A stretch of DNA of 64,000 nt, taken from an uncultured Anaerolineaceae bacterium (GTDB taxonomy: Bacteria > Chloroflexota > Anaerolineae > Anaerolineales > Villigracilaceae). The notes under the pieces were generated by a model that ran no database searches, was not told where the DNA came from, and was given only the letters and a program-made list of their open reading frames with translations. Both the position numbers and the translations under genes were made by a program. The stretch lies in contig CAZSVR010000012.1 in NCBI GenBank assembly GCA_964610295.1, positions 4,246 through 68,245 of the forward strand, in the 5' to 3' direction. Of this stretch, positions 2,840 through 54,957 are shown in pieces. Each line of letters begins with the position of its first letter. The stretch's first letter is position 1.

Positions 2840-3931
2840 TTGAAAAAATTTCTTCTCTCTTCCCTTCGACGTTGCTCAGGGCAGGCTTTCCTTTTTCTTT
2901 TCGCTCTTTCGGCCTGTCTTCCCACAACGACCACGCCGATCATTCCTACTCATGCTCTGCCTACAGAGATTCCGATGACATCCACAACTCAACCTGAATC
3001 CACTCCACCTCTCGGTCGCGGCGTGAACATGGGCAACATGCTCGAAGCGCCGAACGAAGGCGAGTGGGGGCTGTATGTTGAAGAGGAATATTTTGACCGG
3101 ATCAAAGAGGCAGGCTTTGACTTTATCCGTTTGCCGGTTAATTGGAAGGCACATACCAAATATTTAGGACATGATGACGGAGATACTGCCTACTATATTG
3201 ATCCAACTCTCTTTGCTCGTGTCGACGAAGTGGTCAATTGGGCTTTGAAACGCAACCTCCCGATCATCATTGATTTTCATAATTATGAAGAACTTATGTC
3301 TGAACCGAATCTCAATCAATTTGTCTTTTTGTGGGAACAAATCGCCGAGCATTACAAAGATTACCCACCACAGGTTTTGTTTGAATTGCTCAACGAACCT
3401 CACGATCAATTGGATGCCGCATTGTGGAACATTTACGTTGTTGATGCATTGAAGGTGGTGCGCGAGACAAATCCCACACGCGATGTAATTATCGGCCCGG
3501 CAAATTGGAACGCCTACGATTAGGTTTCCACACTCAATATCCCTGATGATCCACATCTCATTGTGACGTTTCATTACTATCTGCCATTCGAGTTCACGCA
3601 TCAAGGCGCGGAGTGGATCGGAGATGAAAGCAACGCATGGCTTGGCACAACCTGGGATGGGACCGACGAACAAAAAGCCGAGATCACGCGCAACTTTGAT
3701 TCCATTGCGGAGTGGGCGAAGGGACATAACGTCCGCATATTACTTGGAGAGTTTGGCGCCTATTCAAAGGCAGACCCGAACTCCCGCGTCCGCTGGACAG
3801 ATTTCGTGGCGCGTGAAGCGGAGCGTCACAACTTTGCATGGGCTTATTGGGAGTTTGGATCGGGCTTTGGGGTGTACGATCCGTTTGCAAAAGGCTGGCG
3901 TGAAGAATTATTGAAGGCGTTGATCCCATAA
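2840..3931 (+). pseudogene. GH5 endoglucanase lipoprotein interrupted by one in-frame TAG at 3521-3523
   Basis: RGVNMGN, ELLNEP (acid/base), FHYYLPFEFTHQG, LGEFG (nucleophile); the two ORFs are in the same frame; lipobox LSAC. Confidence 0.85.
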
Positions 3932-3964
3932 AAACGTCGGGACACGATATGTGTCCCGACGTTT
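3932..3964. terminator. Hairpin between convergent genes (bidirectional terminator or REP)
   Basis: 14-bp perfect stem AAACGTCGGGACAC/GTGTCCCGACGTTT. Confidence 0.75.
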
Positions 3965-4031
3965 GATTGCACAAAGACTTTAAGCAATGGAGGATTTTCA
4001 GCGCAAATGTTTCGACATCATTTCCAGTTAA

Positions 4032-5078
4032 TTATTGCTCCACACTCACCACACCACCCACCGCGTTCAGCTTCAACGTCCACGTGCTTCCAATTTGAAA
4101 TTGCTGGAATTCACTGACCGACCCCGGCGAATACGTTTCCTGCCCGTCATCTGTGTTGAAGTAAACCGTTAGTTGTTCCGAGGCATCCCCCGCGCGCTGG
4201 TCGCTTGAGATGCTTGGGTTTTCATAGACAGGATTCAAATCATTTCCGCTCAAGTCATATGTCTGGACGGTCGTCCATTCATCCACTGTGTAAGAGCAAA
4301 AATCCTCCGACTCAGTATGACACTCCTCCACTTTTTCAGCATATCCATTTCCCTGATCAACCATCTTCTCTTCACAAACCTCCTGGCTTTCGGTATGACA
4401 GGAAACATTATACGCATCTGAAGGCGGGCTGCCGCGTTCGTTGTTGTAATCCACGGCCCTCACTTCCTGTACTGGCACAGAGGTTTGCCATTCCACATTA
4501 GTAACTGTCCCCTGCACGGAACGCGAGGGGAATACGAACAGCATCAAGATCGCTGCGCAGCACAATACGAGAAATGAGCCGATGCCGCCAAGCAACAGCC
4601 AGTTCGGTTTTTTCTTTTGGGCAGCTAATGCCGGTGATGCTACCGCCTCGGCATGCGGCACCACCACGCGCGGTAATGGTGAGCCGCATTTCGAGCAAGT
4701 CCGTTCACTGCCCGGGTTTTCGGTGCCGCAATTTTTGCATGTGATAGTTTTCGGGATCACCGGACCTGCTTGCAGGATCTGCCCGGCCTGGCGCGCCTTG
4801 CCTTCCTTTATATCCCCGCCGCACTGCGAGCATGTCATTGCACTCGCCGGGTTGCGCGTACCGCAGAATCCGCAGTGGATATCCGCGCCTGCCTTGGCCG
4901 CCTCCACTGATTTCTCATCCGTAACGAGCTTCTCTTCAGTAGCACGTTGGAATTGCACATTTTCCGGCTGTGGCGCGCCGCAGTTCTCGCAGGTCTTCTT
5001 TGAGCCCTTGTTCCTGCTATTGCAATTAGGACAGACCCATTCAAGTTCGACAAAGCCTTTACTTTCCCTTCTCGACAT
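4032..5078 (-). CDS. Multi zinc-ribbon single-pass membrane protein
   Basis: Six CxxC pairs at the N-terminus (three ribbons), one TM segment, Cys-containing outer domain. Confidence 0.8.
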   Translation of the reverse strand: MSRRESKGFVELEWVCPNCNSRNKGSKKTCENCGAPQPENVQFQRATEEKLVTDEKSVEAAKAGADIHCGFCGTRNPASAMTCSQCGGDIKEGKARQAGQILQAGPVIPKTITCKNCGTENPGSERTCSKCGSPLPRVVVPHAEAVASPALAAQKKKPNWLLLGGIGSFLVLCCAAILMLFVFPSRSVQGTVTNVEWQTSVPVQEVRAVDYNNERGSPPSDAYNVSCHTESQEVCEEKMVDQGNGYAEKVEECHTESEDFCSYTVDEWTTVQTYDLSGNDLNPVYENPSISSDQRAGDASEQLTVYFNTDDGQETYSPGSVSEFQQFQIGSTWTLKLNAVGGVVSVEQ

Positions 5079-5095
5079 CTCTCACTCCTTAGTCA

Positions 5096-6100
5096 TTAAA
5101 TACCGTTCCACTTGCGGACTTCGGCAATGCGCGACTCATGGTCTGGATCCGCGTGCGGACACGTATCGCCCGCATCTTTCATGGACCCGGAAGCTGTCAG
5201 CGCAGCAAAGACAGCCGCGGCACCGTTCGCGACGTTCAGCGGTTCATAGCCGCCTTCCAAAACGAAGACGATCTTTCCTTTGCAGTATTCTTCTGCAAGT
5301 CCGACGAGTTTCTTCGAGATGTTGAAATATCCTTTGGTGGATAGACCCAGCGTGGTGATCGGGTCATTCCAATGCGCGTCGAACCCGGCCGAGACGAACA
5401 ACATCTGCGGACGAAATTTCTCCACAACGGGCTTGAAGATTTCATCTGCAATACGTGAAAATGTTTGATCCCCCGCGTACGCATGCAAAGGGACATTGAC
5501 CACGCGTCCCTTCGCGTGCGGCGCGTCTTCGATCCAACCAGTGCCGGGATAAATTCCCCATTGATGGGTTGAGATGAATCCGACGCGTTCCTCATTCAGG
5601 AAGACGGCCTGCGTACCATTCCCGTGATGCGCGTCGTAGTCAATGACCATGACGCGTTCCATTCCATTTGCCAGTGCTTCATGCGTGGCGATGGCGATAT
5701 TGTTGAAAATACAAAATCCCATGGCACGCTCCGGCTCTGCATGATGTCCGGGCGGACGCACGATCGCAAAGGCGTTCTGCGCTTCGCCGTTCAAGACCGC
5801 GCGCGTACACTCGATCAGACCGCCCGCGGCCAGCAGGGCATCTTCGTAGGATGTCTGTGTCACGTAGGTGGGAGCCTGATCAATAACCCCCGGTCCCTGT
5901 TTGCAAACTTCTTCGATCCCTCGCATCATCCCGGATTGATGCACACGCGTCACCTGTTCAGGCGTTGCTTGCTTTACTTCCACGCGCTCCACCCGGAATG
6001 AATCAAGTTGCGGCTCGAGCAATTCCAGTCTGCCGGGTCTTTCGGGGTGGCCGGGAAACTCATGCCCACGCGAAGGGACAAATGCATAAGCTGTTTGCAT
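5096..6100 (-). CDS. Histone deacetylase family (AcuC/AphA-like) protein
   Basis: HPERPGRL, RPPGHHA, GFCIFNN, DYDAHHGNGTQ, SAGFDAH, LEGGY; start moved to MQTAY at 6100. Confidence 0.92.
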   Translation of the reverse strand: MQTAYAFVPSRGHEFPGHPERPGRLELLEPQLDSFRVERVEVKQATPEQVTRVHQSGMMRGIEEVCKQGPGVIDQAPTYVTQTSYEDALLAAGGLIECTRAVLNGEAQNAFAIVRPPGHHAEPERAMGFCIFNNIAIATHEALANGMERVMVIDYDAHHGNGTQAVFLNEERVGFISTHQWGIYPGTGWIEDAPHAKGRVVNVPLHAYAGDQTFSRIADEIFKPVVEKFRPQMLFVSAGFDAHWNDPITTLGLSTKGYFNISKKLVGLAEEYCKGKIVFVLEGGYEPLNVANGAAAVFAALTASGSMKDAGDTCPHADPDHESRIAEVRKWNGI

Positions 6101-6137
6101 GTGCAAATTATAGCCTTTCTTGGTATCATTTCTGATT

Positions 6138-7010
6138 ATGAAAACAAGTGTCGCGATCCTTTTGCTTTTGCCTGCCATGCTTGCGTGCCGTTTTTCGATA
6201 CCGGCAATTCCGAGCGATGACGAAAACATATTAAGCGAGGACCAGATCATCTCTGGCGGCGTGACGCGGCATTTCCTGCTGCATGTGCCGCCATCATATA
6301 ACGGAAATCCGATCTCACTGCTCATTAACTTTCACGGATACGGATCCAATTCAAAAGAGGAGCAGGCCCTGACGGGCATGTCCCTCAAAGCAGACGAAGC
6401 AGGCTTCATTGTGGTCTATCCCGATGGAATTGAATCAACCTGGTATACCGGCCCGATCACGCAGGGCGAAGCGGACCGGCAGTTCATCCGCGATCTGATC
6501 GCGCGCCTTGAAACCCTATACACGATTGACCCAAAACGGATCTATGCAACCGGCATCTCAAACGGCGGCGGTATGACGAACCGACTTGCCTGCGACATGG
6601 CCGATCTGATCGCCGCCATCGCACCCGATTCAGGCGCGTACAACTTCTGGCAGGACTGCGATCCTGCGAGGCCGGTCCCTGTGCTGGCCTTCCATGGGCT
6701 GGATGATAACGTCGTGCCCTATGAGGGCAGTAACCCACGCGCGATCACGCCTCCGATCGAAGACTGGGCGGAGGCCTGGGCTGTACGAAATGGATGTTCA
6801 TCCACGCCCAACGTCACGACACCAGTTGAGACAGTCACGGTACGGACCTGGTCGAGTTGCAAGGAGAATGCCGATGTTATGCTCTACACATTGGCCAATC
6901 ATGGACATTCCTGGCCGGGCTCGCCCAGCATGCCAAACGCCATCACATCACAGGCTGTGAATGCAACCGATGTGATGTGGGAATTTTTCCTGGCACATCC
7001 AATGCCGTGA
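6138..7010 (+). CDS. PHB depolymerase/LpqC-like esterase lipoprotein
   Basis: Lipobox MLAC, FHGYG, GISNGG nucleophile elbow, FHGLDD, GHSWPG. Confidence 0.85.
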   Translation: MKTSVAILLLLPAMLACRFSIPAIPSDDENILSEDQIISGGVTRHFLLHVPPSYNGNPISLLINFHGYGSNSKEEQALTGMSLKADEAGFIVVYPDGIESTWYTGPITQGEADRQFIRDLIARLETLYTIDPKRIYATGISNGGGMTNRLACDMADLIAAIAPDSGAYNFWQDCDPARPVPVLAFHGLDDNVVPYEGSNPRAITPPIEDWAEAWAVRNGCSSTPNVTTPVETVTVRTWSSCKENADVMLYTLANHGHSWPGSPSMPNAITSQAVNATDVMWEFFLAHPMP

Positions 7011-7039
7011 TTAGCAAAGAGAAAGGATGAGGTTAATTC

Positions 7040-7708
7040 ATGTTCATTAAACGACTTGAATTATTGGCAGGTGATCTGGTCCCCCAGCGGGATTTTTACG
7101 CCACTGTGCTGGACTTGCCCGTTCATCTCGATACCGATTCCCTGATCGTGCAGGCCGGCAAAACGGAGTTGATCTTCGCGCAGGCTCCTCCGAATTGGAA
7201 GGGCGAATATCATTTTTGCTTCAACATTCCCGTAAACCAGTTCGTCCATGCAAAGGCGTGGCTGTCTGCCAGAATCCCGCTTTTGAAGGACGAAGAGGGA
7301 AACGATCAGTTTGAGAGCGAATCGTGGAATTCCGCTTCGCTTTACTTCAAAGATACGGCGGGAAATATCCTTGAATTGATCGCCCGCTACGAGCTGAAAA
7401 ATACGGTGCCTGCACCATTTAGCAGCGAACAGATCCTGCAGGTAAGCGAGATCGGCCTGCCTTCGCAAGATGTTATTTCATTTGCCAATGATCTGTGCAC
7501 AAGGTTGGGAATATCCATTTACAAACAGGCAGCCAACGAGACCTTTACACCAATCGGAGATGAGGAAGGGCTGTTCATACTGCCGGTTGAAAAGCGGATC
7601 TGGTATCCGAATACTGGCGTCGCGGCACAGAGGCTGCCTGTAAAAGTAAAAGTTGAAGTAAATGGGAAAGAGTTTAATCTGCGCGGCGTGCCCTATGAGG
7701 TGTCCTAA
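7040..7708 (+). CDS. Glyoxalase/VOC family protein
   Basis: RDFYATVLDL, YHFCFNIP, LYFKDTAGNILELI. Confidence 0.75.
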   Translation: MFIKRLELLAGDLVPQRDFYATVLDLPVHLDTDSLIVQAGKTELIFAQAPPNWKGEYHFCFNIPVNQFVHAKAWLSARIPLLKDEEGNDQFESESWNSASLYFKDTAGNILELIARYELKNTVPAPFSSEQILQVSEIGLPSQDVISFANDLCTRLGISIYKQAANETFTPIGDEEGLFILPVEKRIWYPNTGVAAQRLPVKVKVEVNGKEFNLRGVPYEVS

Positions 7709-7736
7709 TTTGCAGGTGCGAGGATCCTGCCGTTCT

Positions 7737-8123
7737 TTATGCATCCTCCATCAGCCATGCCATGGCCTCACCAATATCTTTGAACGTACGATACGGCAGG
7801 TTGCGATTGCGAGCCGCGATTTCAAAGAATGCCATATCGTCTTTCATCTTTTTGTCCGTTGACGGATAGACCACCGCGGTCTTTGCGCTTTTCCTCCCAA
7901 ATCCCCCTCGTTGTTGGCGTAGTTCCTGCGCGCGTTCAAAGATTTGGATGATGGGTAGATCAAAGTGAAGCTCTCGAATATCCATCAGGACTTTTGTGCT
8001 TCCGGAGGTATCCACCGCTTCCATGATCTCGCGCACCATGGCGTTATCTGTGGCTTGATCCCATTCCCCCGAGGCTGTTGCAATGATCATGTTCCCGCTT
8101 GCGTGCTGGATGCTACATTCCAT
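7737..8123 (-). CDS. STAS/SpoIIAA-like small protein
   Basis: KVLMDIRE, KTAVV, RTFKDIGEAMAWL pattern. Confidence 0.6.
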   Translation of the reverse strand: MECSIQHASGNMIIATASGEWDQATDNAMVREIMEAVDTSGSTKVLMDIRELHFDLPIIQIFERAQELRQQRGGFGRKSAKTAVVYPSTDKKMKDDMAFFEIAARNRNLPYRTFKDIGEAMAWLMEDA

Positions 8124-8207
8124 AAAATCACCGTTCCATGTCTTTCCCTGGAAAATCCCGGTTAAAGCATCGCAATGTTCATTCTGTAACAGCGCGCTGT
8201 TCAGGTG

Positions 8208-8669
8208 TTATTGCGAATCTCCCTTTCTCCTTCTATTGAACATGGACGTGTTAAAGACGGCTGTGGGACGTTGCCCGGGACCAACCAATGACCCCGAACC
8301 ATCTCCCCTGCGGTTCATCAGCCGCGTATCCTGCGTGAAAACCAGATTGACGCCCGCCAGGGAAATGAGGTCGCCCGGGTAGAGCAATCCCTGGCCAGTG
8401 CGCAGGCCGTTAACGAAGGTACCGCCCGAGGAATTCAGGTCGAAGAGCACAAAGTGGTCACGGATGACGCGGATCTCCGCGTGATGACGCGAGATGCGTG
8501 GATCGTCCAGCACCAGTGTATTGTCGTGACTGCGACCGATACTGAAAACGAGCTGATCCAGTGGCACGGCTTTGCTGCCTTCCAGTACTAAAAAGACATT
8601 GTGAGGGACCGAATTGTCCATCCCGGAATTTTCATTGTTTTCTGTGGGTTTATTCTGAGCGTCATCCAT
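8208..8669 (-). CDS. FHA domain protein
   Basis: IGRSHDN...ISRHHAEI...DLNSSGGTFVNG. Confidence 0.9.
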   Translation of the reverse strand: MDDAQNKPTENNENSGMDNSVPHNVFLVLEGSKAVPLDQLVFSIGRSHDNTLVLDDPRISRHHAEIRVIRDHFVLFDLNSSGGTFVNGLRTGQGLLYPGDLISLAGVNLVFTQDTRLMNRRGDGSGSLVGPGQRPTAVFNTSMFNRRRKGDSQ

Positions 8670-8780
8670 TTTCTAATAGAGGCGTATCCCGCCTACTCCT
8701 TGGGAATACTATATAACAATTCTTGCAAGATTGCAAGGCCCAACTAGGGAGAACACTACTTTTCTATGAGGGATGCGCAC

Positions 8781-9250
8781 CTACCCCCGCCGTCCTTCAC
8801 CCTTGGGGTACTTCGCCGACACCTTCGCAAAGCATACCCGCATCGTCCTCGATGGGGAAAGGGTGCCCCCAAACCCAATGGACTTGCCGTCTCGCATCAG
8901 CGGAGCGATCCTGTGGATAAGCGAAGCAATCCTGTGGATAAGCGAAGCACCGTCCGTGCCGCGAAGTACGACGGCACGTCGGTACGAGACGGCAATCCTG
9001 CGGACCGCCCTGGCGCTGCTCGCGGCATAAGCGAAGCACCGTCCGTGCCGCGAAGTACGACGGCACGTCGGTACGAGACGGCAATCCTGTGGATCAGCGT
9101 AGCCACCCTGTGGGTCAGCGACACTTGCGCCGCACCCCCACTTCGCTGCGCTACGGGGACTTCGTGCGTTCGTTGCAGTGCAGGTGAGCGATCCTGTGGA
9201 CGAACGGGGGTGGCCCACAGGGTGCTTCGCGAAGGCAGCAAGGGGTACTA
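8781..9250. repeat. Composite nested palindromic repeat region (21-mer units, exact 63-bp direct repeat, embedded hairpin elements)
   Basis: AATCCTGTGGATAAGCGAAGC-like units; 8938-9000 = 9027-9089; CACTTG...CAGGTG element at 9122-9186. Confidence 0.85.
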
Positions 9251-9366
9251 TGCCATGCGAAAAATCGCACCTGAGTTGGGGCTGGCAGAGAACGTTCCAG
9301 AGTGAAAGTGATTTCGGTGTCCACGATTCATTGGGCGCAAGGATGTAGCGTGTCTCTTTTTAATAC

Positions 9367-9395
9367 TTGACTCGAACCCTTCATCGTTATACACT
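9367..9395 (+). promoter_or_regulatory. Sigma70-type promoter TTGACT-N17-TACACT
   Basis: Near-consensus boxes with 17-bp spacer upstream of 9458. Confidence 0.7.
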
Positions 9396-9457
9396 CAACC
9401 TAACAACAGGAACAAGACTGCCTAAATCTGGCTCACCTTATCGGTAAAGGAGCGACC

Positions 9458-10078
9458 ATGTCAGAGGAACGATTTGTCTCACGCGGTTTTGTCGGCAAGC
9501 GGCGCGCAGGGGAGAAAAAGGATCGCATCCCGCCTGGTCAATATCTCACAAATGATTTCCCTGTGCTCTCAGCGGGACCAACCCCTTATACGCCCCTCGA
9601 TAAATGGACCTTCAGCATTGATGGTCTTGTCAAAGAAAAGGTTTCATGGACATGGCAGGAGTTCCTCAAACTCCCCATGCAGAAATATGTGGTGGATATT
9701 TCCTGCGTCACCAAATGGACGCATCTCGACATGAAGTGGGAGGGCGTCAGCCTCGATACGCTCCTCGAACATGTTGAACTCGACCGCAAAGCCATGTTCG
9801 TCACGGCGCATAGCGATGGCGGCTACACCACCAACCTGCCGCTCACCGACATCATAAACGGTCAATCCTTCATAGCTTTGAAATACGATGATAAACCTTT
9901 AGCCCCCGAACACGGCGGTCCCGCGCGCATGGTTGTGCCGCATCTGTATTTCTGGAAGAGCGCCAAGTGGGCGCGCGGTGTCCACTTCATTGAAAAAGAC
10001 AAGCCCGGCTTCTGGGAATCGGCTGGATATCACAACCATGCCGACCCGTGGAAAGAACAGCGGTATTGGAATGACTGA
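9458..10078 (+). CDS. Sulfite oxidase-like molybdopterin oxidoreductase
   Basis: RIPPGQ, DISCVTKWT, EHGGPAR, YFWKSAKW, GFWESAGYH. Confidence 0.9.
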   Translation: MSEERFVSRGFVGKRRAGEKKDRIPPGQYLTNDFPVLSAGPTPYTPLDKWTFSIDGLVKEKVSWTWQEFLKLPMQKYVVDISCVTKWTHLDMKWEGVSLDTLLEHVELDRKAMFVTAHSDGGYTTNLPLTDIINGQSFIALKYDDKPLAPEHGGPARMVVPHLYFWKSAKWARGVHFIEKDKPGFWESAGYHNHADPWKEQRYWND

Positions 10079-10083
10079 TGTAT

Positions 10084-10275
10084 GTCATGCTGAGGAGCGA
10101 CACTTGCACCGCACTCCCACTCCGCTGCGCTACGCCCACTCGCTGCGCTCGGGACTGCCGCTTTGCGGCGTGCGCGAGGGACTTCGTGCGTTTGGTGCAG
10201 TGCAGGTGAGCGACGAAGCAATCTCGCACATCGCGAGGGGATTGCTTCGGTGGAAGAACGCCACCTCGCAATGAC
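10084..10275. repeat. GTC..GCGAG/CGAAGCAATC/CTCGCAATGAC-type REP interrupted by a 108-bp CACTTG...CAGGTG element
   Basis: AGCGA duplicated at 10096-10100 and 10209-10213; uninterrupted relatives at 51557 and 57347. Confidence 0.85.
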
Positions 10276-10289
10276 GGTTCGGAGAGCTT

Positions 10290-11030
10290 ATGAAACAAAC
10301 ACTGGACTGGCAAATCGCTTCGGTCACGGACATCAAGCCTGAAACCCCTAAAGTGAAATCGTTGACGCTGAGACTCCCAGCGTGGATGCGTCACCGCGCG
10401 GGACAGCATTACGACCTGCGCCTCACCGCCCAAGATGGCTATCAAACCCAACGCAGTTACTCCATCGCATCAGAACCAGAGCGCGCAGGGGAGGTTGACA
10501 TCACGGTGGAGCGTATCAACGATGGTGAAGTCTCGACCTACTTGCATGATGTGCTTGTCAAGGGAGACCGCCTCGAAATGCGCGGACCGATCGGCGGCTA
10601 CTTCGTCTGGGAGGCGAAAATTACCGATCCGTTGTTGTTGATCGCGGGTGGGTCAGGCGTTGTGCCATTGATGTCCATGCTTCGTCATCGCGCCGCGGCT
10701 GGAGGAAAGCATCCGGCCAGTCTACTATATAGTTCACGCAACTTTGAAGACATCATCTACTTCAACGAACTCGAAAAACTGCGCGGGGCAATTAACGGCG
10801 TGCAGGTTCTTCACACGCTTACACGCTCCCAACCCGCGGGTTGGAAGGGATATGCGCGGCGCATTGATCAGGAGATGTTGAAGGAAGTCGCGCAGCCTTT
10901 GGGTAAATCTGTTCAAGTTTTCATTTGTGGACCGACGCTTTTGGTTGAATCCACTGCCAATGCCCTGGTCAAAATTGGTGTTCGCGTGGACAACATTCGC
11001 ACGGAAAGATTCGGTCCATCAGGAGGATGA
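10290..11030 (+). CDS. Ferredoxin-NADP reductase-like FAD/NAD-binding oxidoreductase
   Basis: RSYSIAS, GEVSTYL, RGPIG, IAGGSGVVP, ICGP, ERFG. Confidence 0.9.
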   Translation: MKQTLDWQIASVTDIKPETPKVKSLTLRLPAWMRHRAGQHYDLRLTAQDGYQTQRSYSIASEPERAGEVDITVERINDGEVSTYLHDVLVKGDRLEMRGPIGGYFVWEAKITDPLLLIAGGSGVVPLMSMLRHRAAAGGKHPASLLYSSRNFEDIIYFNELEKLRGAINGVQVLHTLTRSQPAGWKGYARRIDQEMLKEVAQPLGKSVQVFICGPTLLVESTANALVKIGVRVDNIRTERFGPSGG

Positions 11031-11033
11031 GCC

Positions 11034-11321
11034 ATGCAAGAGACAACAGATATTAACCGTGAACTTATGCTGGATGCGAACGCGACCGCAGGTCTGCTTT
11101 ACGAAATCTTTGGCACGGAAATGACCGCCGCGCCGACCGAATGTGCCAATTGTGGCAATGAAGCAGAGATCGGCACGTTGCTGGCTTTCACGCACGGACC
11201 GGGGATCGTATTGCGCTGTTCCGCCTGTGAGCAGGTGGTCTTGCGCATCACACAAACCCCCACGGAAATATTACTCGATGCGCGCGGCGCGGTGTATTTG
11301 AGGTTGGCAAGAATAAAATAA
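11034..11321 (+). CDS. DUF6510-like small Cys protein
   Basis: LDANATAGLL, CANC and CSAC pairs. Confidence 0.65.
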   Translation: MQETTDINRELMLDANATAGLLYEIFGTEMTAAPTECANCGNEAEIGTLLAFTHGPGIVLRCSACEQVVLRITQTPTEILLDARGAVYLRLARIK

Positions 11322-11336
11322 AGGGTCCAAGGTTAC

Positions 11337-11449
11337 CTACCCCCACCGTCCTGTCCCCTTCGGGCACCTCCCCCAAATCCGCAATTCATTCTCCAAATAA
11401 TTATGCTGAGGTTTTATTGCGTATTTGGGGGAGGCTCGGGAAGGGGTAG
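11337..11449. repeat. Inverted-repeat element (CCTCCCCCAAAT arms)
   Basis: 11367-11385 vs 11416-11434 match 18/19 as inverted repeats; outer CTACCCC/GGGGTAG. Confidence 0.7.
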
Positions 11450-11577
11450 CAAAAGATGCGTTCGCACATCCTAGGCACATCCTTCGTACTTCTTTGTAAA
11501 TGGTTCCTACTGGATGTATCCACTATATAGTAGCAACGGTACATCGCCAAAAGTGCGACTTCCTGAAAGAAGCAATC

Positions 11578-11608
11578 AAAAAATCCTAGCCAATGGCTAG
11601 GATTTTTT
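11578..11608. terminator. Bidirectional intrinsic terminator
   Basis: A6-TCCTAGCC-aat-GGCTAGGA-T6. Confidence 0.85.
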
Positions 11609-12129
11609 CTTTTTCTTTTTCCTTCTAGTTGATTTTTTCATAGGAATTGGCATTGGATGTTGAGGTTGTTTTTCTCTCTCCCTTCCAACCCGAATAAAAT
11701 TCACTATTCCGCCAAGAAATCCTCCAAGCAATACTGAATAGCCTTGAACATTCTTCCCAACCCAAAGTAAACCAATACCACCCAAAGAGAGAATTCCAAA
11801 AAGAACGAAACCTAATTTCAGCCCTAGATCAGCGCGACGAACATCACCTTGTATACACTGTTTTCTAATCCAAAACGATGTTCTTGTTGCTTCTCGGCCA
11901 TACGGAAAATTCGCTTTGGAGCATCTGGCATCACTGCCTTATACTGTGCAAATATTTTTGGATGAGGCAGTGGGCCAGAAAAAGATTCAAAGTAAGAGAA
12001 TATTCTTCGAACATTCTCTTTCCCCCCGGCCTTTTCGATTATTTCGTCGGGGATTCTTATCTCGTTGCCTGGCTCTGCCTTGGCTTTATTCCCTTTATTA
12101 GCAGGGAAGATTTCCTTTCCCTCAGCCAT
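11597..12129 (-). pseudogene. DUF2335-like membrane protein with a single-base frameshift near 11854
   Basis: FSGPLPHP...APKRIFRMAEKQQEHR; adding one A restores NSVIQGDVRRADLGLKLGFVLFG into the 11597-11785 ORF. Confidence 0.75.
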
Positions 12130-45473: not shown

Positions 45474-45518
45474 AAGTCTTGGTCTTATTTTGTTCTTTTT
45501 ATTATAAAGGAGTTATTA

Positions 45519-46592: not shown

Positions 46593-46607
46593 CCCGCCGA
46601 TGGCCCA

Positions 46608-47822
46608 TTATATGGATGAACGCGGAATATACCGGATAATTTTTTCGGGCACAATTAATGAGTATCCCACAACGAACATGATCAGGTAAACGATCGAAAA
46701 TTTCAGTGTGCCTGAACCAGCGAAGCTCAAACCGGCCAGCAGGGAAACGACCAGCGAAATAATTGACGGATAATATTGCTGAACAATATTATCTTTTTCC
46801 AAAATGCGGATAAGACAAAATATTGGGATCAATAAAAGAGTTAAGTCATGATAGTGGGCGTAGGGCAAAAGGAATATGGCTGCTATCGATATCAAGCCAA
46901 TGTGCTTTTCGCTGATCTCCCTGCTTTTGTACCACCACATGCAAAAACCTGCGACTCCCAGAACATAGCATATCCAGATCATGGTTTTTACCGGCTCTGG
47001 ATCGGTGATCCTAAAATTCCGTCTGACAATACCGGAAATTGTTGGCATATCGAAAGAGTGCGGTTCGTGCCAGATGGTATTCTCAATATACCTGATACTT
47101 TCAATAAATTTATAGGCTCCGTCGATTTTTATCAGCGCCAGACTGATTCCAGCCAGTATCAAACTTCCAATGGCAAAGCCCCAAAAAACGTTCCGATGAC
47201 GGAACAGGAAAGGAATCGCCAGGATCAAGGCGATCTGTGGGCGGACCGTAGTCAGGCTTAATCCCAGGCCTGCCAGTAAATATTTTTTGGATAATGTTCC
47301 CGAGGCCCAGAGTATCGCCCCCAACAGTAATATTGCGGTATCCTGCCCGTTCATGAAACCGCTAAATGTTGGAAAAAACAAAAAAGCCCCCATGTACAAA
47401 ATAACAAGGTTCTCTTTTGTAAACCTGCTCATTTCCAACATCTTAACCAGAAGATGGACATTAAGCACATTAAGCAGCAGCAAAACGATCGCCCACCTTT
47501 TGAAGGAGTTTACATAATCCTCATCCACCAGGGCTGTTGCAAGCGGGGCGATAAAAGGCAGGTGTGTATAAAAAATGGGAACAACTTCATGACCGACAAC
47601 CTCTTGCTCGATCTTTTTTTGTTCCTCCATGTCGTGTATATATTGAAACCCCCTGGTCTGGGAAATTCTCCCGTATGCATAAAAACCGATAAAATCTGAA
47701 CCATTTCTTGTTTTCGGATCTGCGATCATCATCGCCCATAAAAATACATAGACCAGGGACAACGAAAATAAACCCGTAAAGGCAAAGATTCGACGATAGT
47801 TTAGATTTCCCATATATGTCAT
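46608..47822 (-). CDS. GT87/DUF2029-like membrane glycosyltransferase
   Basis: SDFIGFY, NGQDT, poly-TM; AT-richer than its neighbours. Confidence 0.7.
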   Translation of the reverse strand: MTYMGNLNYRRIFAFTGLFSLSLVYVFLWAMMIADPKTRNGSDFIGFYAYGRISQTRGFQYIHDMEEQKKIEQEVVGHEVVPIFYTHLPFIAPLATALVDEDYVNSFKRWAIVLLLLNVLNVHLLVKMLEMSRFTKENLVILYMGAFLFFPTFSGFMNGQDTAILLLGAILWASGTLSKKYLLAGLGLSLTTVRPQIALILAIPFLFRHRNVFWGFAIGSLILAGISLALIKIDGAYKFIESIRYIENTIWHEPHSFDMPTISGIVRRNFRITDPEPVKTMIWICYVLGVAGFCMWWYKSREISEKHIGLISIAAIFLLPYAHYHDLTLLLIPIFCLIRILEKDNIVQQYYPSIISLVVSLLAGLSFAGSGTLKFSIVYLIMFVVGYSLIVPEKIIRYIPRSSI

Positions 47823-47985
47823 TTATACCAGAATTATCAACTGAAATTATTCAGGTTCATCAACAAGGCGACGGCGCGGTTCACGGGAGCATGGGTGTAA
47901 AATAAAAGATGCGCAGAGCGTATCTGCTGGATCCATTCTGTGTTCGCATTGTATCCACAACAGTATCTGTGGTAAAAATGGCCTC

Positions 47986-49383
47986 ATGCTGCGAATTTAT
48001 AACACCCTCACCCGTAAGACAGAAGATTTTCAAACTCTCGAACCGAACCTCGTCAAGATGTACGTCTGCGGCGTCACGGTCTATAACGACGCGCATGTCG
48101 GTCACGCCATGTCCGCGCTGGTATTCGACATCATCCGCCGCTATCTTGAATATCGCGGTTACAAAGTCAAACATGTTATGAACTATACGGACGTGGACGA
48201 TAAGATCATCAATCGCGCGAAACAGCTCAACGAAGACCCGCTTAAACTCTCGCAACGATACATCGAAGATTATGCAAACGACCTGAATAATCTGAATGTA
48301 TTACCGGCCACATCGAATCCGCAAGTCAGCAAGACCATGCCGCTGATCATCAAGTTCATCGAGGGTTTGATTCAAAAAGAAGCTGCATACGCCGCGCCAA
48401 ATGGAGATGTATACTTCCGCGTCATCAGTGACGACGATTACGGAAAACTCTCGGGCCGCAAACTGGACGACATGCAGGCAGGCGCGCGCATCGAAGTGGA
48501 GGAAGCCAAAGATCATCCGATGGACTTCGCCCTTTGGAAAGCTGCAAAGCCCGGTGAAATATCCTGGGATAGTCCGTGGGGCAAAGGACGCCCCGGCTGG
48601 CACATCGAATGCTCGGCCATGAACCTCGCCGAGCTCGGCGAACAAATTGACATTCACGGCGGCGGCAACGACCTGATCTTCCCGCATCATGAGAACGAGA
48701 TCGCACAAACCGAAAGTTACACGGGCAAGGAATTCTCACGCTATTGGGTCCACAACGGCATGTTGCAACTCGGCGGCGAGAAAATGTCCAAGTCGCTGGG
48801 CAATATCGTCAGCATCAAGGAATTTTTATCGAAGCGATCCGCGGATGTGCTGCGCATGCTCGTTTTGAACGGGACCTATCGCGCGCCGCTATTGTTCAAC
48901 GACGAGACCCTGGACGCCGCCGAAAAGAATGTCGAACGGCTGAAATCCGGACTTCGGCCTGCCGCGCCCTCCTCAAAGGGAATCAATGCTGAGTCCGTTG
49001 CCCACCTCGCGGCCACGGCCGCATCTGCCAAGACCAACTTCACCGACGCCATGGACAACGACTTCAACACCGCGGGCGCGATCGCCGCGTTGTTCGAGAT
49101 CGTCAAAGCCATCAATATCGCGCGCGACAACGGCGCGACAGATGTGCAGCTCAAGCCCGCACAAGACCTCTTCCATGAATTCGCAAATGTGCTTGGCTTG
49201 AAACTCGAGGACAAACAAGGTTCCGGCGGCGCGGAGAAGTTCGTTGACCTGCTGATCGAAGTACGAAACGATGTGAGAAAGCAGAAGTTGTGGGCTTTAT
49301 CCGACCAGATCCGAGACAAATTGAAAGAACTTGGCGTGACGATGGAAGACAGCAAGGATGGAACGACCTGGCGATGGGGATAG
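47986..49383 (+). CDS. cysS: Cysteine--tRNA ligase
   Basis: CGVTVY, HVGH, DFALWK, GRPGWHIECS, KMSKS. Confidence 0.98.
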   Translation: MLRIYNTLTRKTEDFQTLEPNLVKMYVCGVTVYNDAHVGHAMSALVFDIIRRYLEYRGYKVKHVMNYTDVDDKIINRAKQLNEDPLKLSQRYIEDYANDLNNLNVLPATSNPQVSKTMPLIIKFIEGLIQKEAAYAAPNGDVYFRVISDDDYGKLSGRKLDDMQAGARIEVEEAKDHPMDFALWKAAKPGEISWDSPWGKGRPGWHIECSAMNLAELGEQIDIHGGGNDLIFPHHENEIAQTESYTGKEFSRYWVHNGMLQLGGEKMSKSLGNIVSIKEFLSKRSADVLRMLVLNGTYRAPLLFNDETLDAAEKNVERLKSGLRPAAPSSKGINAESVAHLAATAASAKTNFTDAMDNDFNTAGAIAALFEIVKAINIARDNGATDVQLKPAQDLFHEFANVLGLKLEDKQGSGGAEKFVDLLIEVRNDVRKQKLWALSDQIRDKLKELGVTMEDSKDGTTWRWG

Positions 49384-49423
49384 ATTAGTCTGATAGTTGG
49401 TTAGTCGAATAGTCTGATAATCG

Positions 49424-49456
49424 AAAACTTCCGAGGCCTAAACTCCCGGAAGTTTT
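49424..49456. repeat. AAAACTTCCG...CGGAAGTTTT hairpin (terminator or RAYT-REP relative)
   Basis: 10-bp stem sharing ACTTCCG/CGGAAGT with the REPs at 508 and 1194. Confidence 0.55.
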
Positions 49457-49480
49457 TATTTCTCAAGTAAAATCAACAGC

Positions 49481-49664
49481 ATGAAAGAATTCATCTACTC
49501 ACGCAACGCTGTCTATGAGACTTTGCGCGCCAGGCGCAGGGAGATTTTCGAGATCGAGATTGCCGATTCCGCGCAGGAAAAAGGAAAATTGGCCGAGATC
49601 ATAAAATTAGCCAATGAACGAAAAATAAAAGTGCACCGTGTGCAGCGCGCCAAGCTGGATAAAG
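49481..49664 (+). pseudogene. rlmB: Orphaned 5' stump (61 codons) of rlmB
   Basis: Colinear with 50827-51010, 47/61 aa identical; own TAAAAT 7 nt upstream. Confidence 0.9.
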
Positions 49665-49668
49665 ATTT

Positions 49669-50655
49669 CTACCGAATGGGGACATACCCGCTTTCTTTAA
49701 CTGTCTCCTGCCCTGCATCTGTGAGGAACCAATCGCGAAGCGCGATCGCAAAACTATCAGGCGGCATGTCAGCGCGCACGACAACATACACTTCTGTCGC
49801 AAGCGGATAGACGCCGCTGGCGATTGTCTCTGAATTCGGATGAACTCCTTCGACTCCAAGCAGTTTGATATTCTCGTCGGGAAGCATGAACGTGGCATAG
49901 TAATAAACGGAGTACCCGATTCCCAGTGTGTCATCGTGAATCGCGCTGATGGGTCCCATCATGCTTGGAAAGATCATGTTTGGCGCATCGGACATTGACC
50001 TGCCTTTCATGACCAGTTCTTCCATTAATTCCTGGCTCCCTGAATTCCTGTCGCGTTGATAGGCATTGATTTCGCCTGCGCCGCCCAGTTCCGACCAGTC
50101 TGCGATTTCCCCTGCGTAGATGCTTCTTATCTGTTCCAGCGTGAGGGAAGTTACAGGATTGTCTTTGTGCACAAGGAAAACAAAAGCATCCAGAGCCATG
50201 GGGCGCACCTCGAGGATCACATCTGCTTTGGCGGCTTCCTTTACTTCGTCATCGGATGGCAGGCGCGCGACGAGGATCAGGTCAGTTTCTTTCTGGATCA
50301 AATTCACATAGGCTTGGTGCGTTCCGCGGTGGAAGATGCTGAGTACAATGCCTCCAGTCTCAGTCAGAGAAGTGGCGAGATCGGGACCGATCCCGCGCTC
50401 TACGACGAACTCCGAAAATGAGGGAAGCGTCCAGGTGCATGCGACGTTCAGTAATTTGCAGGCTGTGAGTATCTGCAACGGATGGGTTGAGGTCGAGCCA
50501 TCCACGCGGGGATAGTTCTGCGCGATGCCTGAGACATCAGGCGTGGGGCCCGGCGTATACGCTCCCGAAGGTGTGATGACTACATCCGCCCTGGATGGCT
50601 GACAACCTGTCAACAGTGCCAGCGAGAAGATCAATACAAATTTTGAAACATTCAT
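49669..50655 (-). CDS. Orphan PstS-like substrate-binding lipoprotein
   Basis: Lipobox LTGC, VDGSTSTHPL, YQRDRNSGSQ, IGYSVYYY; no permease genes nearby. Confidence 0.8.
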   Translation of the reverse strand: MNVSKFVLIFSLALLTGCQPSRADVVITPSGAYTPGPTPDVSGIAQNYPRVDGSTSTHPLQILTACKLLNVACTWTLPSFSEFVVERGIGPDLATSLTETGGIVLSIFHRGTHQAYVNLIQKETDLILVARLPSDDEVKEAAKADVILEVRPMALDAFVFLVHKDNPVTSLTLEQIRSIYAGEIADWSELGGAGEINAYQRDRNSGSQELMEELVMKGRSMSDAPNMIFPSMMGPISAIHDDTLGIGYSVYYYATFMLPDENIKLLGVEGVHPNSETIASGVYPLATEVYVVVRADMPPDSFAIALRDWFLTDAGQETVKESGYVPIR

Positions 50656-50751
50656 TTTAGCCTCCAGATTCGGTAAGGCTCGCCATTTATATTATAGTCC
50701 GTTGATGGAAGACGCGCATGAGCCGTAAAGAACTGCGATATAAAATCTAGC

Positions 50752-50815
50752 AAGTGACAGTCACGTTGCTCCCCTATTTTCCTTCGGGAGTACTCCGCAA
50801 AGGTGACTGTCACTT
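50752..50815. repeat. AAGTGACAGTCAC...GTGACTGTCACTT palindromic element abutting the rlmB -10 box
   Basis: 13-bp inverted arms; TATAAT at 50815-50820. Confidence 0.8.
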
Positions 50816-50826
50816 ATAATCGGGGT

Positions 50827-51555
50827 ATGAAAGAACTCCTCTACTCCCGCAACGCCGTCTATGAAACCTTGCGCGCCGGGCGCAGGGAGATCTTCGCGAT
50901 CGAGATCGCCGATACCGCACAGGATAAAGGCCGCATCGTGGAGATCCTCAAATTGGCAAACGAACAAAAGATAAAAGTAAGCCGCGTACCGCGCGGGAAA
51001 CTGGATAAAGTCCATGAGGATCATCAGGGTGTGGTGGCTGAAGTCAGCAAATATCCGTATTCAGATGTGGTTGAGATCCTTGAGCAGGCAAAGGGAGAGT
51101 TGCCTTTTGTGCTCATCCTTGATTCTTTGCAAGACCCGCAGAACTTTGGCACGCTTTTGAGAACAGCCGAAGCCATCGGCGTGCATGGCGTGATCATTCC
51201 ATTGGCAAGGACCGTGGATGTGACTCCTGCGGTGGTCAACGCATCCTCTGGTGCAAGCGAGCACTTACTCATTGCACAGTCCAATCTCTCACAGGCAATC
51301 GACGCACTCAAAGATAATGATGTATGGATCGTGGGCCTTGACGAGGCCGGGGCGGAGATCGAAGCTGGCTCACGTCATCTGCGCGGCGCGGTGGGATTGG
51401 TCGTCGGCTCGGAGGGCGAAGGGCTGCACGAGCTCACACGCAAGAAATGCGATATCCTGATGAAACTTCCGATGCGCGGACAGATCGAATCATTGAACGC
51501 GGCCGTCGCCGGGTCGGTCGCGTTGTATCTCGCGTATCTGGCACACACAAAATAG
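50827..51555 (+). CDS. rlmB: 23S rRNA (G2251-2'-O)-methyltransferase
   Basis: HQGVVA, QDPQNFG, GSEGEG, SLNAAVA; leaderless start. Confidence 0.93.
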   Translation: MKELLYSRNAVYETLRAGRREIFAIEIADTAQDKGRIVEILKLANEQKIKVSRVPRGKLDKVHEDHQGVVAEVSKYPYSDVVEILEQAKGELPFVLILDSLQDPQNFGTLLRTAEAIGVHGVIIPLARTVDVTPAVVNASSGASEHLLIAQSNLSQAIDALKDNDVWIVGLDEAGAEIEAGSRHLRGAVGLVVGSEGEGLHELTRKKCDILMKLPMRGQIESLNAAVAGSVALYLAYLAHTK

Positions 51556-51556
51556 C

Positions 51557-51646
51557 ATGTCGTTGCGAGGGCGGCGCTCTTCCGCCCAAAGCAATCTCCC
51601 ACTTAGCGAGGAGACTGCTTCGCCAAGGAGCGGCTCGCAGCGACAT
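51557..51646. repeat. GTCGTTGCGAG/AAGCAATC/CTCGCAGCGAC REP-type element
   Basis: Nested inverted arms; relatives at 10084 and 57347. Confidence 0.8.
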
Positions 51647-51663
51647 AATCGACAGGAGAAATC

Positions 51664-53022
51664 ATGCCTCAGGCAACTTATCATTTTCCGAAGGGATTTT
51701 TGTGGGGAACGGCAACCGCGTCCCACCAGGTGGAAGGCAACAACACGAATAACAATTGGCACAAGTGGGAAGAAGAAGGTCATACAGTTCACAAATCCGG
51801 TCTCGCCTGTGATTGGTGGGGTGGACGCTGGCGAGAAGACTTCGACCGCGCCGCCGAATCAGGTCAGAACGCGCATCGTTTATCTGTGGAGTGGAGCCGC
51901 ATTCAACCCACGCCCGATACATGGAATGAGGACGCGCTCGAAAAATATCGAACTATGTTGCGCGGGCTACGCGAGCGCGGCATCACGCCGATGGTCACGC
52001 TTCATCACTTCACCGATCCGCTATGGCTTACCGAACGCGGCGCCCATTCGACACTCCCTTCGGTCGCAGGGCAAGCATGGGAGACGGAAGAGGTTGTGCC
52101 ATTGTTCGAGAAATTCACGCGCAAAGTAGTGGATGCGTTGAAGGAATATGTGACGTTGTGGTGCACGATCAACGAACCGAATGTATATGCGTTGAGTGGA
52201 TATGTAACAGGCGCGTTCCCACCGGGCAGGAAAAACATAAGATTATCCATGCGTGTGATCGCGAATATGCTGCGCGGTCACGCCGCGGCCTATCGCGCCA
52301 TTCATGAACTGCAACCCGAAGCGCGCGTCGGTTATGCCTTGCATTATCGCCCAATGGTGTCGCGTATAAGATGGTCGCCATTGGATCGGTGGATGAGAAA
52401 CATTCGATATAGCAGGATCAACATGGGCTTCCCCTCCGCGATATCCACTGGCGTGATGAGATCACCAGTCGGAAATCAAAGCATTCCCGAAGCAAAAGGT
52501 ACGCAGGATTACGTTGGACTCAATTATTACTCTGTGGACACTGTCTGGTTTGATATTTCAAAACCCGGCGAATTATTTTCAAATAGCGGCTATCCAAAAG
52601 ATGCTGATATGAGCGATAACAATTATCTCGCCAACATTCCCGAAGGGATCTTCGACTCTATAAAATGGATCGTCCGCACGTACCCGAACACACCCATCAT
52701 CATCACAGAGAACGGCGTGGAGGACGCAGACGATCACATGCGCCCGCGTTATCTTGCGCAACATCTTCATCAGGTATGGCGCGCAGTCAATTTCAATTGG
52801 CCGGTCAAGGGATATTTCCACTGGTCATTGGTGGATAACTTCGAATGGGAGCGCGGCTGGACCCAGCCTTTCGGCCTGTGGGGATTGGATATAGATACAC
52901 AAAAACGCATCAGACGCCCAAGCGTGGATTTGTATGCTGAGATCTGCAAAGAGAACGGGATCTCAAGCGAAATGGTGCAGAAGTATTGTCCCGAGGCGTT
53001 TGACAAGCTATTCCCTGTTTGA
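51664..53022 (+). CDS. GH1 beta-glucosidase with an 11-aa repeat-derived insertion
   Basis: ATASHQVEG, TLHHF, TINEP, ITENG, WSLVDNFEW. Confidence 0.92.
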   Translation: MPQATYHFPKGFLWGTATASHQVEGNNTNNNWHKWEEEGHTVHKSGLACDWWGGRWREDFDRAAESGQNAHRLSVEWSRIQPTPDTWNEDALEKYRTMLRGLRERGITPMVTLHHFTDPLWLTERGAHSTLPSVAGQAWETEEVVPLFEKFTRKVVDALKEYVTLWCTINEPNVYALSGYVTGAFPPGRKNIRLSMRVIANMLRGHAAAYRAIHELQPEARVGYALHYRPMVSRIRWSPLDRWMRNIRYSRINMGFPSAISTGVMRSPVGNQSIPEAKGTQDYVGLNYYSVDTVWFDISKPGELFSNSGYPKDADMSDNNYLANIPEGIFDSIKWIVRTYPNTPIIITENGVEDADDHMRPRYLAQHLHQVWRAVNFNWPVKGYFHWSLVDNFEWERGWTQPFGLWGLDIDTQKRIRRPSVDLYAEICKENGISSEMVQKYCPEAFDKLFPV

Positions 53023-53050
53023 TCGGAAAGAAAGTGAAGGAGAATTGGAC

Positions 53051-53857
53051 ATGGATCTCAAAATTCAACTTACAGGTTTGAACGAATTGCTATCCATTAT
53101 CTATGGGGACAAGCTGCAGTTGAGCACCTTGCTGCGCGAAATCGGATTTGAGGGTTCCCAGATCGAACACTTGCAAGAGCAGCATCTCGAGTCCATTGTC
53201 CCCCAGTTTTTGGAGGTCATCCACAAGCGCCTGACGAGCGATTCAGGTAAGGATACCTATTATCAGATCCTGAGCCGTCGTTATGGATTGGACGGCCAAC
53301 CACCCGAGCAACTTCCTGCGATCGCCGCCAAGGAAAATCACAGCCCGGAATATCTGCGTCAGTTATTCGAAGAGATCATTCAAAGATGCCAGAGCAAAAC
53401 ATGGCAGGCCGAACTCCGCAAGAGCCTGAAATATATTGCCGTTTCTCAACTGGAGAAAATGAATGAGCGCCCGACACGTGAGCACATTGCTGAAAAACTG
53501 GAACGCCTGACCAATTTACGCGGCGCGGCGGACGTGGCCCGCCTGGATTACGAAGCCAAACGCGCGGAGATCCTTAAGCAGATCCAGGCCGAGCTGGATG
53601 CGCTCGATTCCGAATACACGCCCATACTTGAAGCAGCCGACGAAAATATTGCCGCGCTGGAAAATGAGATCAAGACCGAGGTGCTTTTGCACGGTGAAAG
53701 TGTTTCAGGTGGGGTCTATCGCGCCACGTACACGCAGGGACGCGTCTCATGGGATAACGATGGCATGGCCAAGTATGCAGCTTCCCACCCAGACGTGGCC
53801 CAATTCCGCAAACAGGGACAACCCATCGTCTCTTTGCGCACGGTGAAACAAGATTGA
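53051..53857 (+). CDS. Hypothetical protein: sigma70 region-4-like HTH, coiled coil, phage Gam/Gp157-like C-terminus
   Basis: ILSRRYGLDG...YLRQL; GRVSWD...HPDVAQFRK; domain calls are pattern-based. Confidence 0.5.
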   Translation: MDLKIQLTGLNELLSIIYGDKLQLSTLLREIGFEGSQIEHLQEQHLESIVPQFLEVIHKRLTSDSGKDTYYQILSRRYGLDGQPPEQLPAIAAKENHSPEYLRQLFEEIIQRCQSKTWQAELRKSLKYIAVSQLEKMNERPTREHIAEKLERLTNLRGAADVARLDYEAKRAEILKQIQAELDALDSEYTPILEAADENIAALENEIKTEVLLHGESVSGGVYRATYTQGRVSWDNDGMAKYAASHPDVAQFRKQGQPIVSLRTVKQD

Positions 53858-54957
53858 ATTTGCCTCCCGATTTCATCCAAACCATCCAAAGCACGTCTGG
53901 AGAAGATGGAAAACAATTGATCGAAGATCTTCCCAATCTGATCGCAGAGGCATCAATCAGGTGGGGATTATCGAATATTGAACCGATCCCAAACCTATCC
54001 TTCAACTTTGTGGCGTTTGCAAAACAGGTCTCGATACGGCGGCGTTGGTCGAGTAGGACGAAGTCCGTATACTTGCGCCGCACTGCGTTTGTTGCAGTGC
54101 AGGTGTCGAGACCCGCCGCCTACTCGACCAACCAGCAGGACGTAGTACTGAAAATTGGGGTGCCACGCGATGAATCGATCAGCGAAATGGCCGCGTTGCG
54201 TCTCTTCAATGGCGATGGCGCGTGCCGTTTACTAGAATATGATGAGTCGCGCGGTTTTTTATTGCTGGAACGACTTCGGCCTGGGACGATGCTCTCGGAA
54301 TTGGAAGATGATGACGAACGCACTCACATCGCTGCGCAGGTGATGAGCAAGCTTTGGCGAGAAATTCCTGTAGACTCCGCTCAAGGCGGCGTCCCCGCCG
54401 CCGTCCCACAGGGATGCTTCGCGAAGGACGGCGGCTTGAGCATTGTTTCCAAATTTATTAAATTATCAGATTGGTTTGATGGGTTGAAGAGGATTCGTCC
54501 ACATTTCAATGGAGGAACCGGACCCTTCCCAAAAGAACTTTTGGAACAAGTGGACGCTTTTTTGCCAGAGTTGTTCGCGGATGAAAACGTAAATCTCATA
54601 CATGGGGATTTTCATCACTTCAATGTGTTGCTGTCAGACCGCGGCTGGCTGGCGATCGATCCCAAAGGCGTGATCGGCCCAGTGGGTTATGAGGTGGGTC
54701 CGTTCATGCTCAACCCGTGGAGCGGCATCTCGGACGCGCACCAGTTCAAGGCTTGTCCTGAGCGAAGTCGAAGGGTCCAGGCAGAGAGGCGGGTGAGTAT
54801 CCTTTCAGAGAGACTCGGCTGGGAGCGCGAAAAGATCATTCAGTGGGCAACCGCCCATGCCGTCTTATCTGCATGGTGGAGCATAGAAGATGGCGGGGAA
54901 GAAACGGGTTGGGAGTATTCGATGTGGTGTGCACAGATGTTTTCAGAGATTAAATAA
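53854..54957 (+). CDS. Aminoglycoside/hydroxyurea resistance kinase (APH(6)-like) with three repeat-derived in-frame insertions
   Basis: VVLKIG, LLLERL, HGDFHHFN, IDPKG. Confidence 0.85.
   Translation: MNLPPDFIQTIQSTSGEDGKQLIEDLPNLIAEASIRWGLSNIEPIPNLSFNFVAFAKQVSIRRRWSSRTKSVYLRRTAFVAVQVSRPAAYSTNQQDVVLKIGVPRDESISEMAALRLFNGDGACRLLEYDESRGFLLLERLRPGTMLSELEDDDERTHIAAQVMSKLWREIPVDSAQGGVPAAVPQGCFAKDGGLSIVSKFIKLSDWFDGLKRIRPHFNGGTGPFPKELLEQVDAFLPELFADENVNLIHGDFHHFNVLLSDRGWLAIDPKGVIGPVGYEVGPFMLNPWSGISDAHQFKACPERSRRVQAERRVSILSERLGWEREKIIQWATAHAVLSAWWSIEDGGEETGWEYSMWCAQMFSEIK

Follow-up and report, generated by a model that had tools for sequence, protein, structure and literature searches.

What does it mean that three unrelated genes in a 64,000-nucleotide (nt) stretch of DNA from an uncultured Anaerolineaceae bacterium (the window in the following) carry the same short sequence motif, read in frame each time, and could so small a sequence be a mobile element? 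The genome studied here spans 3.73 Mb on 163 contigs with 51.7% G+C, and the window comes from its contig C12. The core pattern CCCTTCGAC-NNN-GCTCAGG matches the window twice where shuffled sequences give an expectation of 0.03, and with a longer variant there are three copies in total. These three copies probably represent one family of very small non-autonomous insertion elements that comprises a 24-nt unit and a 33-nt derivative. As laid out below, this reading is carried by clean empty sites in relatives, by a census of the genome and by the distribution of the element across bacteria and viruses, while the way in which the element is copied can be narrowed down by weighing several candidate mechanisms.

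Three element copies and their empty sites

The first copy (site A; 2862..2887, plus strand) consists of the left box CCCTTCGAC, a GTT spacer, the right box GCTCAGGG and a tail, and its 24 nt lie in codons 8–15 of an open reading frame (ORF; 2840-3523) within the signal peptide of a GH5 lipoprotein. The host gene belongs to the GH5 cellulase family (2840..3931, plus strand) and is split by a single in-frame stop codon (3521-3523, between …NWNAYD and VSTLN…), with PF00150 matching both halves; it may be a pseudogene, or the stop may be a sequencing error. The second copy (site B; 52044..52077, plus strand) is a 33-nt variant in which the left box is repeated and which reads as AHSTLPSVAGQ in a GH1 beta-glucosidase-family gene (51664..53022, plus strand; PF00232). 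The third copy (site C; 54752..54775, minus strand) is again 24 nt long, has a TTC spacer and contributes the plus-strand peptide ACPERSRR to a gene of the APH(6)/hydroxyurea-kinase family (53854..54957, plus strand; PF04655). Junctions are ambiguous by 2 nt at site A, 1 nt at site B and 2 nt at site C. The window sequence, its ORFs and the Pfam matches confirm the initial annotation in placing three in-frame copies inside coding sequences at these positions. Its wording that the element is always found inside a coding sequence holds for the window only, as 28 of the 70 copies in the genome are intergenic.

That the copies are insertions is evident from empty sites in orthologues or homologues at all three positions. 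Orthologues of the GH1 gene from the same genus and order show a 33-nt gap in 19 of 19 cases, between the codons for …ERG and WET…, and a 24-nt gap is found in all 12 kinase orthologues aligned at the DNA level. In one of the latter (L024), the sequences flanking the junction are the same as in the window (TTCAAGG before and TCCAGG… after the junction, over at least 7 and at least 15 bases, respectively). No close orthologue of the GH5 gene was found among the relatives' genomes, and database homologues (60-72% identity) were used instead. Exactly 8 residues are absent from 13 of 14 of these proteins, in a signal peptide that is otherwise conserved, and the DNA of homologue P0002 has a clean 24-nt gap at site A. 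Another homologue (P0012, locus L255, 66% identical) carries a decayed copy, LRLCAGNA, at the position of site A while closer homologues are empty, which means that the site is a hot spot of repeated insertion or that other homologues have lost their copy. The previously proposed gains of 8, 11 and 8 codons are thus exact, corresponding to gaps in relatives of 24 nt for GH5, 33 nt for GH1 and 24 nt for the kinase.

Further host genes were aligned with their orthologues from five congeners (G001, G007, G009, G010 and G014). Insertions seen in the studied genome only have lengthened MurE, AlaS, GuaA and MutS by 24 nt each, a GT4 glycosyltransferase by 24 nt net and RsmH by 33 nt. PheS (+21 nt net) and PNPase (+30 nt net) are filled in both the studied genome and G001, with diverged versions. 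Inheritance and recurrent insertion could each account for these two shared cases: the studied genome and G001 are not sisters in a four-protein tree, and the tree is still compatible with inheritance because the relevant split has only 67% support. All of the ten insertions tested are multiples of three in length, as they have to be if the gene is to stay open, and both the survival at codon-multiple lengths proposed in the initial annotation and an intrinsic 24-nt unit would account for this. Eight of the ten occur in the studied genome alone. Each private insertion tested measures exactly 24 or 33 nt. Across the ten events the junctions are ambiguous by 0–2 nt, and none of them shows a target duplication, so that the orthologue alignment suggested as a check on the initial annotation returns gaps without target duplications. 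Contigs from two studies (four metagenome runs) contain the insertions at sites B and C without indel variants, and the one at site C also occurs in a variant strain that is ~3% divergent.

Some host genes hold additional inserts. The kinase gene of the window has two more insertions that are absent in this form from its orthologues, at residues 59-93 (54027-54133) and residues 175-197 (~54376-54444). The first is a multi-copy nested palindrome at which contig depth rises from ~9 to 231, and at this site G001 and G007 have shorter inserts of their own; the peptide of the second has matches at C7:6380 and C34:39560 of the studied genome. The insert of the G001 kinase at the first of these sites (L022; …VTLSEAKGL…) comes from a sister element family containing GCGAAGC. 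MutS of G014 (L208) has a private 24-nt insert, DPANPTRG, four codons downstream of the site used in the studied genome, and this insert stems from an unrelated small GC-rich element. A copy in G001 that shares the GTT spacer of site A was considered as a possible syntenic counterpart, and the two loci are unrelated.

Element anatomy, genome census and distribution

In the 24-nt unit, a spacer of 2-3 nt that is free to vary separates the left box CCCTTCGAC from the right box GCTCAGGG, and 4-5 loosely conserved nt follow as a tail; the conservation profile has a sharp onset at the left box and fades ~5 bases past the right box. The 33-nt form is this unit with the left box duplicated. Site B belongs to a true subfamily and is not a degenerate copy: the 33-nt form has a 28-base core, and 8 genomic copies fit it with no more than 4 mismatches. 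The genome-wide census, in which each box could deviate at one position, found 70 copies (spacers of 2 nt in 42 and of 3 nt in 20, plus 8 of the 33-nt form) compared to 0 in the reversed genome, and the motif is therefore more frequent than composition predicts, in the genome as in the window. Nearly every copy has a different spacer, and the boxes are intact.

Confident genes hold 36 of these copies and weak ORFs another 6, and the other 28 are intergenic. Confident genes make up 77% of the genome, and genic copies are ~1.5-fold under-represented, which fits partial purifying selection; they are far commoner than for classical extragenic repeats. Hosts identified by Pfam include PheS, AlaS, a MurE-type Mur ligase, GMP synthase, MutS, PNPase and RsmH as well as a RodZ-like protein, the GT4 glycosyltransferase, two amine oxidases, a STAND-LuxR regulator and an RHS protein. 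Of the element's six reading frames, five are open, so that genic copies are read as loops of 8 or 11 residues, and the idea of the initial annotation that the element is a source of peptide insertions stands. The closed frame (CCC TGA) is never used in genes, the commonest frame reads PSTGSGQA, and sense copies outnumber antisense copies by 27 to 9. For the GH1 protein, an AlphaFold model built from a 20-sequence alignment has a mean predicted local distance difference test (pLDDT) score of 83, and its sole segment below 50 comprises residues 126-136, exactly the insert, which is predicted to form a disordered loop between two helices.

The family is dispersed, with patchy copy numbers that are specific to lineages. 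Beside the 70 copies of the studied genome, 40 relatives carry 0 to 49 copies of the exact core per genome, with the reversed-pattern control giving 0 everywhere. Among Chloroflexota, the element is found in 64 of 301 genomes (reversed control 0/301); every sampled genome of one genus has 50-82 copies, and several large families lack the element altogether. At least 119 genome stretches contain the exact 24-mer (with R at two positions), and the phyla among the matches listed are Acidobacteriota, Chloroflexota, Pseudomonadota, Planctomycetota, Verrucomicrobiota, Bacteroidota, Actinomycetota, Myxococcota, Nitrospirota, Chlamydiota, Saccharibacteria and others. By our own arithmetic, only ~0.02 matches would be expected by chance (22 fixed and 2 twofold-degenerate positions, 596 Gb, both strands). 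Nothing beyond the 24 bases is conserved between the cross-phylum loci. The exact 24-mer is also present on 32 viral contigs, where 78% of copies lie within an open frame of at least 200 codons (85% for random sites), compared to ~40% of the copies in foreign loci (82% for random sites). Nesting of one copy in another, with the inner one placed between the GAC and the AG of its host copy, is seen in other phyla.

Insertion favours GA^CCT sites (the caret marking the junction) that resemble the element's own 5' end. Three independent events, in the kinase, MurE and RsmH, targeted AGG^TC, which is GA^CCT in element orientation, and the bases following the junction in the kinase, MurE, MutS and GH5 (CCTTG or CCTTC) resemble the start of the element. 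Across 56 non-redundant copies, the flanks are biased to A at -1 (35 copies), C at +1 (32 copies) and T at +3 (33 copies). A preference for the centres of host palindromes was rejected: the signal is weak across phyla, with flanking stems of at least 6 nt in 7.2% of copies and 0.8% of controls, and no copy of the studied genome lies at such a centre.

Two larger repeats are associated with the family. A second-tier element of ~45 nt, CCGTTCGTGCCGCG…GAGACGGCA, is present in 33 copies and sits precisely between GCTCA and GG(G) of its hosts, which are the 24-nt family and a sister family, CCCTTCGCT…GCTCAGGGTGAC (e.g., at C17:10656, C5:74058 and C1:148790); some of its copies hold a third nested layer. 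A composite repeat of ~150-180 nt contains the 24-mer at a fixed internal position and is found six times on contigs C100, C127 and C131 (L273-L275), where it lies among small co-oriented ORFs; features of integron attC sites were not recognised in it.

Candidate mechanisms of copying

Letter-perfect conservation, lineage-specific bursts, a biased choice of targets and the precision with which the 45-nt element is nested lead us to favour, tentatively, a sequence-specific activity that would copy the element in trans. Its letter-perfect conservation across phyla and its presence on viral contigs further suggest that the element would spread horizontally and be constrained by whatever recognises the two boxes.

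Several points weigh against a mobile family that spreads in this way. No mobilising gene was found. The spacers and tails of recent copies differ from each other, and among the resident copies none was noticed that is identical to a private insertion, though no systematic pairwise comparison was made; simple copy-and-paste would predict identical donors, so that the differences in spacer and tail count against it. Insertions that we call private need not be recent, because the nearest genomes compared are only ~80-85% identical in protein. No empty/filled polymorphism was seen within populations, a result that refers to assembled contigs only, and contigs drop rare variants. Finally, the gene calls of the census come from a rough custom caller (3380 genes covering 87% of the genome).

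Some of these features would be expected if host machinery inserted the element by templating, with a nascent strand that, during replication or repair, jumps to a resident copy at a microhomology of 2-4 nt, reads it as template and returns, without any dedicated enzyme. Junction ambiguities of 0–2 nt without target duplication, the resemblance of targets to the element's 5' end, variable tails and spacers, the internally duplicated left box of the 33-nt form, and the existence of copy-rich genomes without Y1_Tnp or RVT_1 are all consistent with such a process. We nevertheless consider it possible but rather unlikely, since 22 positions should not be preserved letter by letter in more than 12 phyla by a passive process, which also leaves the lineage-restricted bursts unexplained. 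In addition, a simple microhomology model predicts, by our own reading, 23 added bases at the kinase, where 24 are observed. Variable spacers and the lack of an identical donor fit neither activity in trans nor template switching easily.

A more far-reaching explanation is that the 24-mer is a pan-bacterial self-propagating module that requires no element-encoded or accessory enzyme and is copied by a universally conserved cellular machine recognising both boxes. This would explain how the letter-perfect 24-mer can occur in more than 12 phyla and on phages, and we regard it as unlikely.

Two classes of enzymes with a known role in DNA mobility can be judged by co-occurrence, and neither a RAYT/IS200 transposase (RAYT, REP-associated tyrosine transposase; REP, repetitive extragenic palindromic) nor a reverse transcriptase is needed for a genome to have many copies, because genomes with ~60 copies have neither. 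For the small dispersed repeats (SDRs) of cyanobacteria, Elhai and colleagues reportedly proposed an RNA intermediate in 2008, and a transcript of the element could likewise be copied back into DNA by a reverse transcriptase. RVT_1 genes are indeed found in 2 of 5 copy-rich genomes, but the other three (61, 58 and 14 copies; 97-100% complete) have no RVT_1 match, and no Rfam family overlaps a copy, which makes spread via RNA very doubtful and a reverse transcriptase dispensable. Rfam gave no match in the window at the gathering score and one chance-level hit, overlapping no copy, among 20 loci around intergenic copies, and a known RNA family was rejected on these searches.

A REP-like element that is moved by a RAYT or an IS200/IS605-type Y1 HUH transposase acting on a single-stranded hairpin would share the small size, the lack of target duplications and an imperfect inverted repeat, and nine Y1_Tnp matches exist in the genome, including one in the window that is flanked by repeats of its own. 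However, no element copy lies less than 900 nt from any of these nine genes, and the RAYT gene of the window (459-1271) is flanked by another repeat family, namely paired repeats built on AGACTTC..GAAGTCT that are distinct from the 24-nt element. Half of the copies are genic, unlike REPs. The hairpin of the initial annotation did not hold up either, as the 24-mer and the 33-mer fold no better than shuffles on either strand (DNA parameters; minimum free energies of -0.9 to -2.1 kcal/mol, z of +0.2 to +1.2), and the two boxes match at only 5 of 8 positions; speculatively, tandem sheared G.A pairs, which are outside the energy model, might stabilise the minus strand. The distributions of element and transposase also diverge. 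Of the 17 genomes of the Chloroflexota family f40, 14 have the element and 1 has Y1_Tnp. The element occurs without Y1_Tnp in families f39 and f32, and Y1_Tnp (26 of 38 genomes) occurs without the element in families f43, f36 and f28. Five genomes with 12-68 copies lack any Y1_Tnp (PF01797) match even at E <= 0.01. With neither adjacency nor co-occurrence across 301 genomes, mobilisation by RAYT or IS200 enzymes is largely refuted and in our view highly improbable.

That the sequence is not mobile at all, and is instead a selected DNA or peptide signal that arose convergently (such as a protein-binding site or a favoured linker) or a chance recurrence, is scarcely credible: conserved boxes around a free spacer do recall a two-part binding site and the PSTGSGQA frame is over-represented, but orthologues cleanly lack 24 or 33 nt at these positions, which shows insertion rather than change in place, the use of all five open frames and both strands means that no single peptide is under selection, and reversed-pattern controls gave 0 in 301 genomes.

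Relation to known repeats and implications

Among known repeats, SDR1-8 of Nostoc and Anabaena, which Elhai and colleagues are said to have described in 2008, resemble the 24-nt element in their very small size (21-27 nt), in their dispersed copies with presence or absence between relatives, in the lack of an associated transposase and in nested insertion into other small repeats, seen here as 24-mers in 24-mers and as the 45-nt element in related elements. The element differs in that half of its copies are genic and translated in the studied genome, and in that it has no significant hairpin while SDR4-6 reportedly share a predicted one. SDRs are reported to have been found only in Nostocaceae (PMC5861425), whereas the 24-nt element occurs in many phyla and on viral contigs, its host here being a member of the Anaerolineales and not a heterocyst-forming cyanobacterium.

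Rickettsia palindromic elements (RPEs) are palindromic repeats of ~100-150 bp that are found only in Rickettsia and lie in frame in metabolic and housekeeping genes (PMC10969869). They share with the 24-nt family that selfish repeats sit in frame in unrelated genes and are read as tolerated extra peptide, but the element has only 24 or 33 nt and no stable palindrome, extends across phyla and encodes a peptide that depends on the frame, whereas the peptide of RPEs is conserved. REPs and REPINs are hairpins outside genes that lie beside a cognate RAYT or co-occur with it (PMC3116915). The element is similarly short, dispersed and free of target duplications, and the studied genome also has RAYT genes with REPs of their own; unlike REPs, however, it is not a hairpin, is often genic (36 of 70 copies), adjoins no RAYT and occurs in genomes without Y1_Tnp. 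MITEs (transposable elements of the miniature inverted-repeat type) such as Correia/NEMIS, ERIC and BOX are usually longer than 100 bp and have terminal inverted repeats and target duplications (PMC10969869). They are likewise non-autonomous and multi-copy with occasional in-frame fusions, but the ends of the element are not inverted repeats and it makes no target duplication. The element thus combines the size and nesting of SDRs with the in-frame behaviour of RPEs, and its cross-phylum reach differs from both. A full-text literature search for the DNA string of the element found no paper, and we are not aware of an earlier comparison with Y1_Tnp and RVT_1 across a whole phylum.

One module of 24 bases therefore joins the mobility of very small repeats, so far described only in one cyanobacterial family, with in-frame insertion into genes, which is known for selfish repeats mainly from Rickettsia. 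As far as full-text searches show, this is an unreported and widespread route to short protein loops, and its host genes include essential ones, i.e., those for aminoacyl-tRNA synthetases, MutS, MurE, PNPase and GMP synthase. In practical terms, the inserts can mislead alignments, gene calling and assembly, and the repeats break contigs and spike depth. The copying of 24 bases without a transposase poses a mechanistic problem, and if a universally conserved cellular machine did copy the 24-mer, no smaller class of mobile DNA would be known, and essential proteins would have in the element a general supply of new surface loops.

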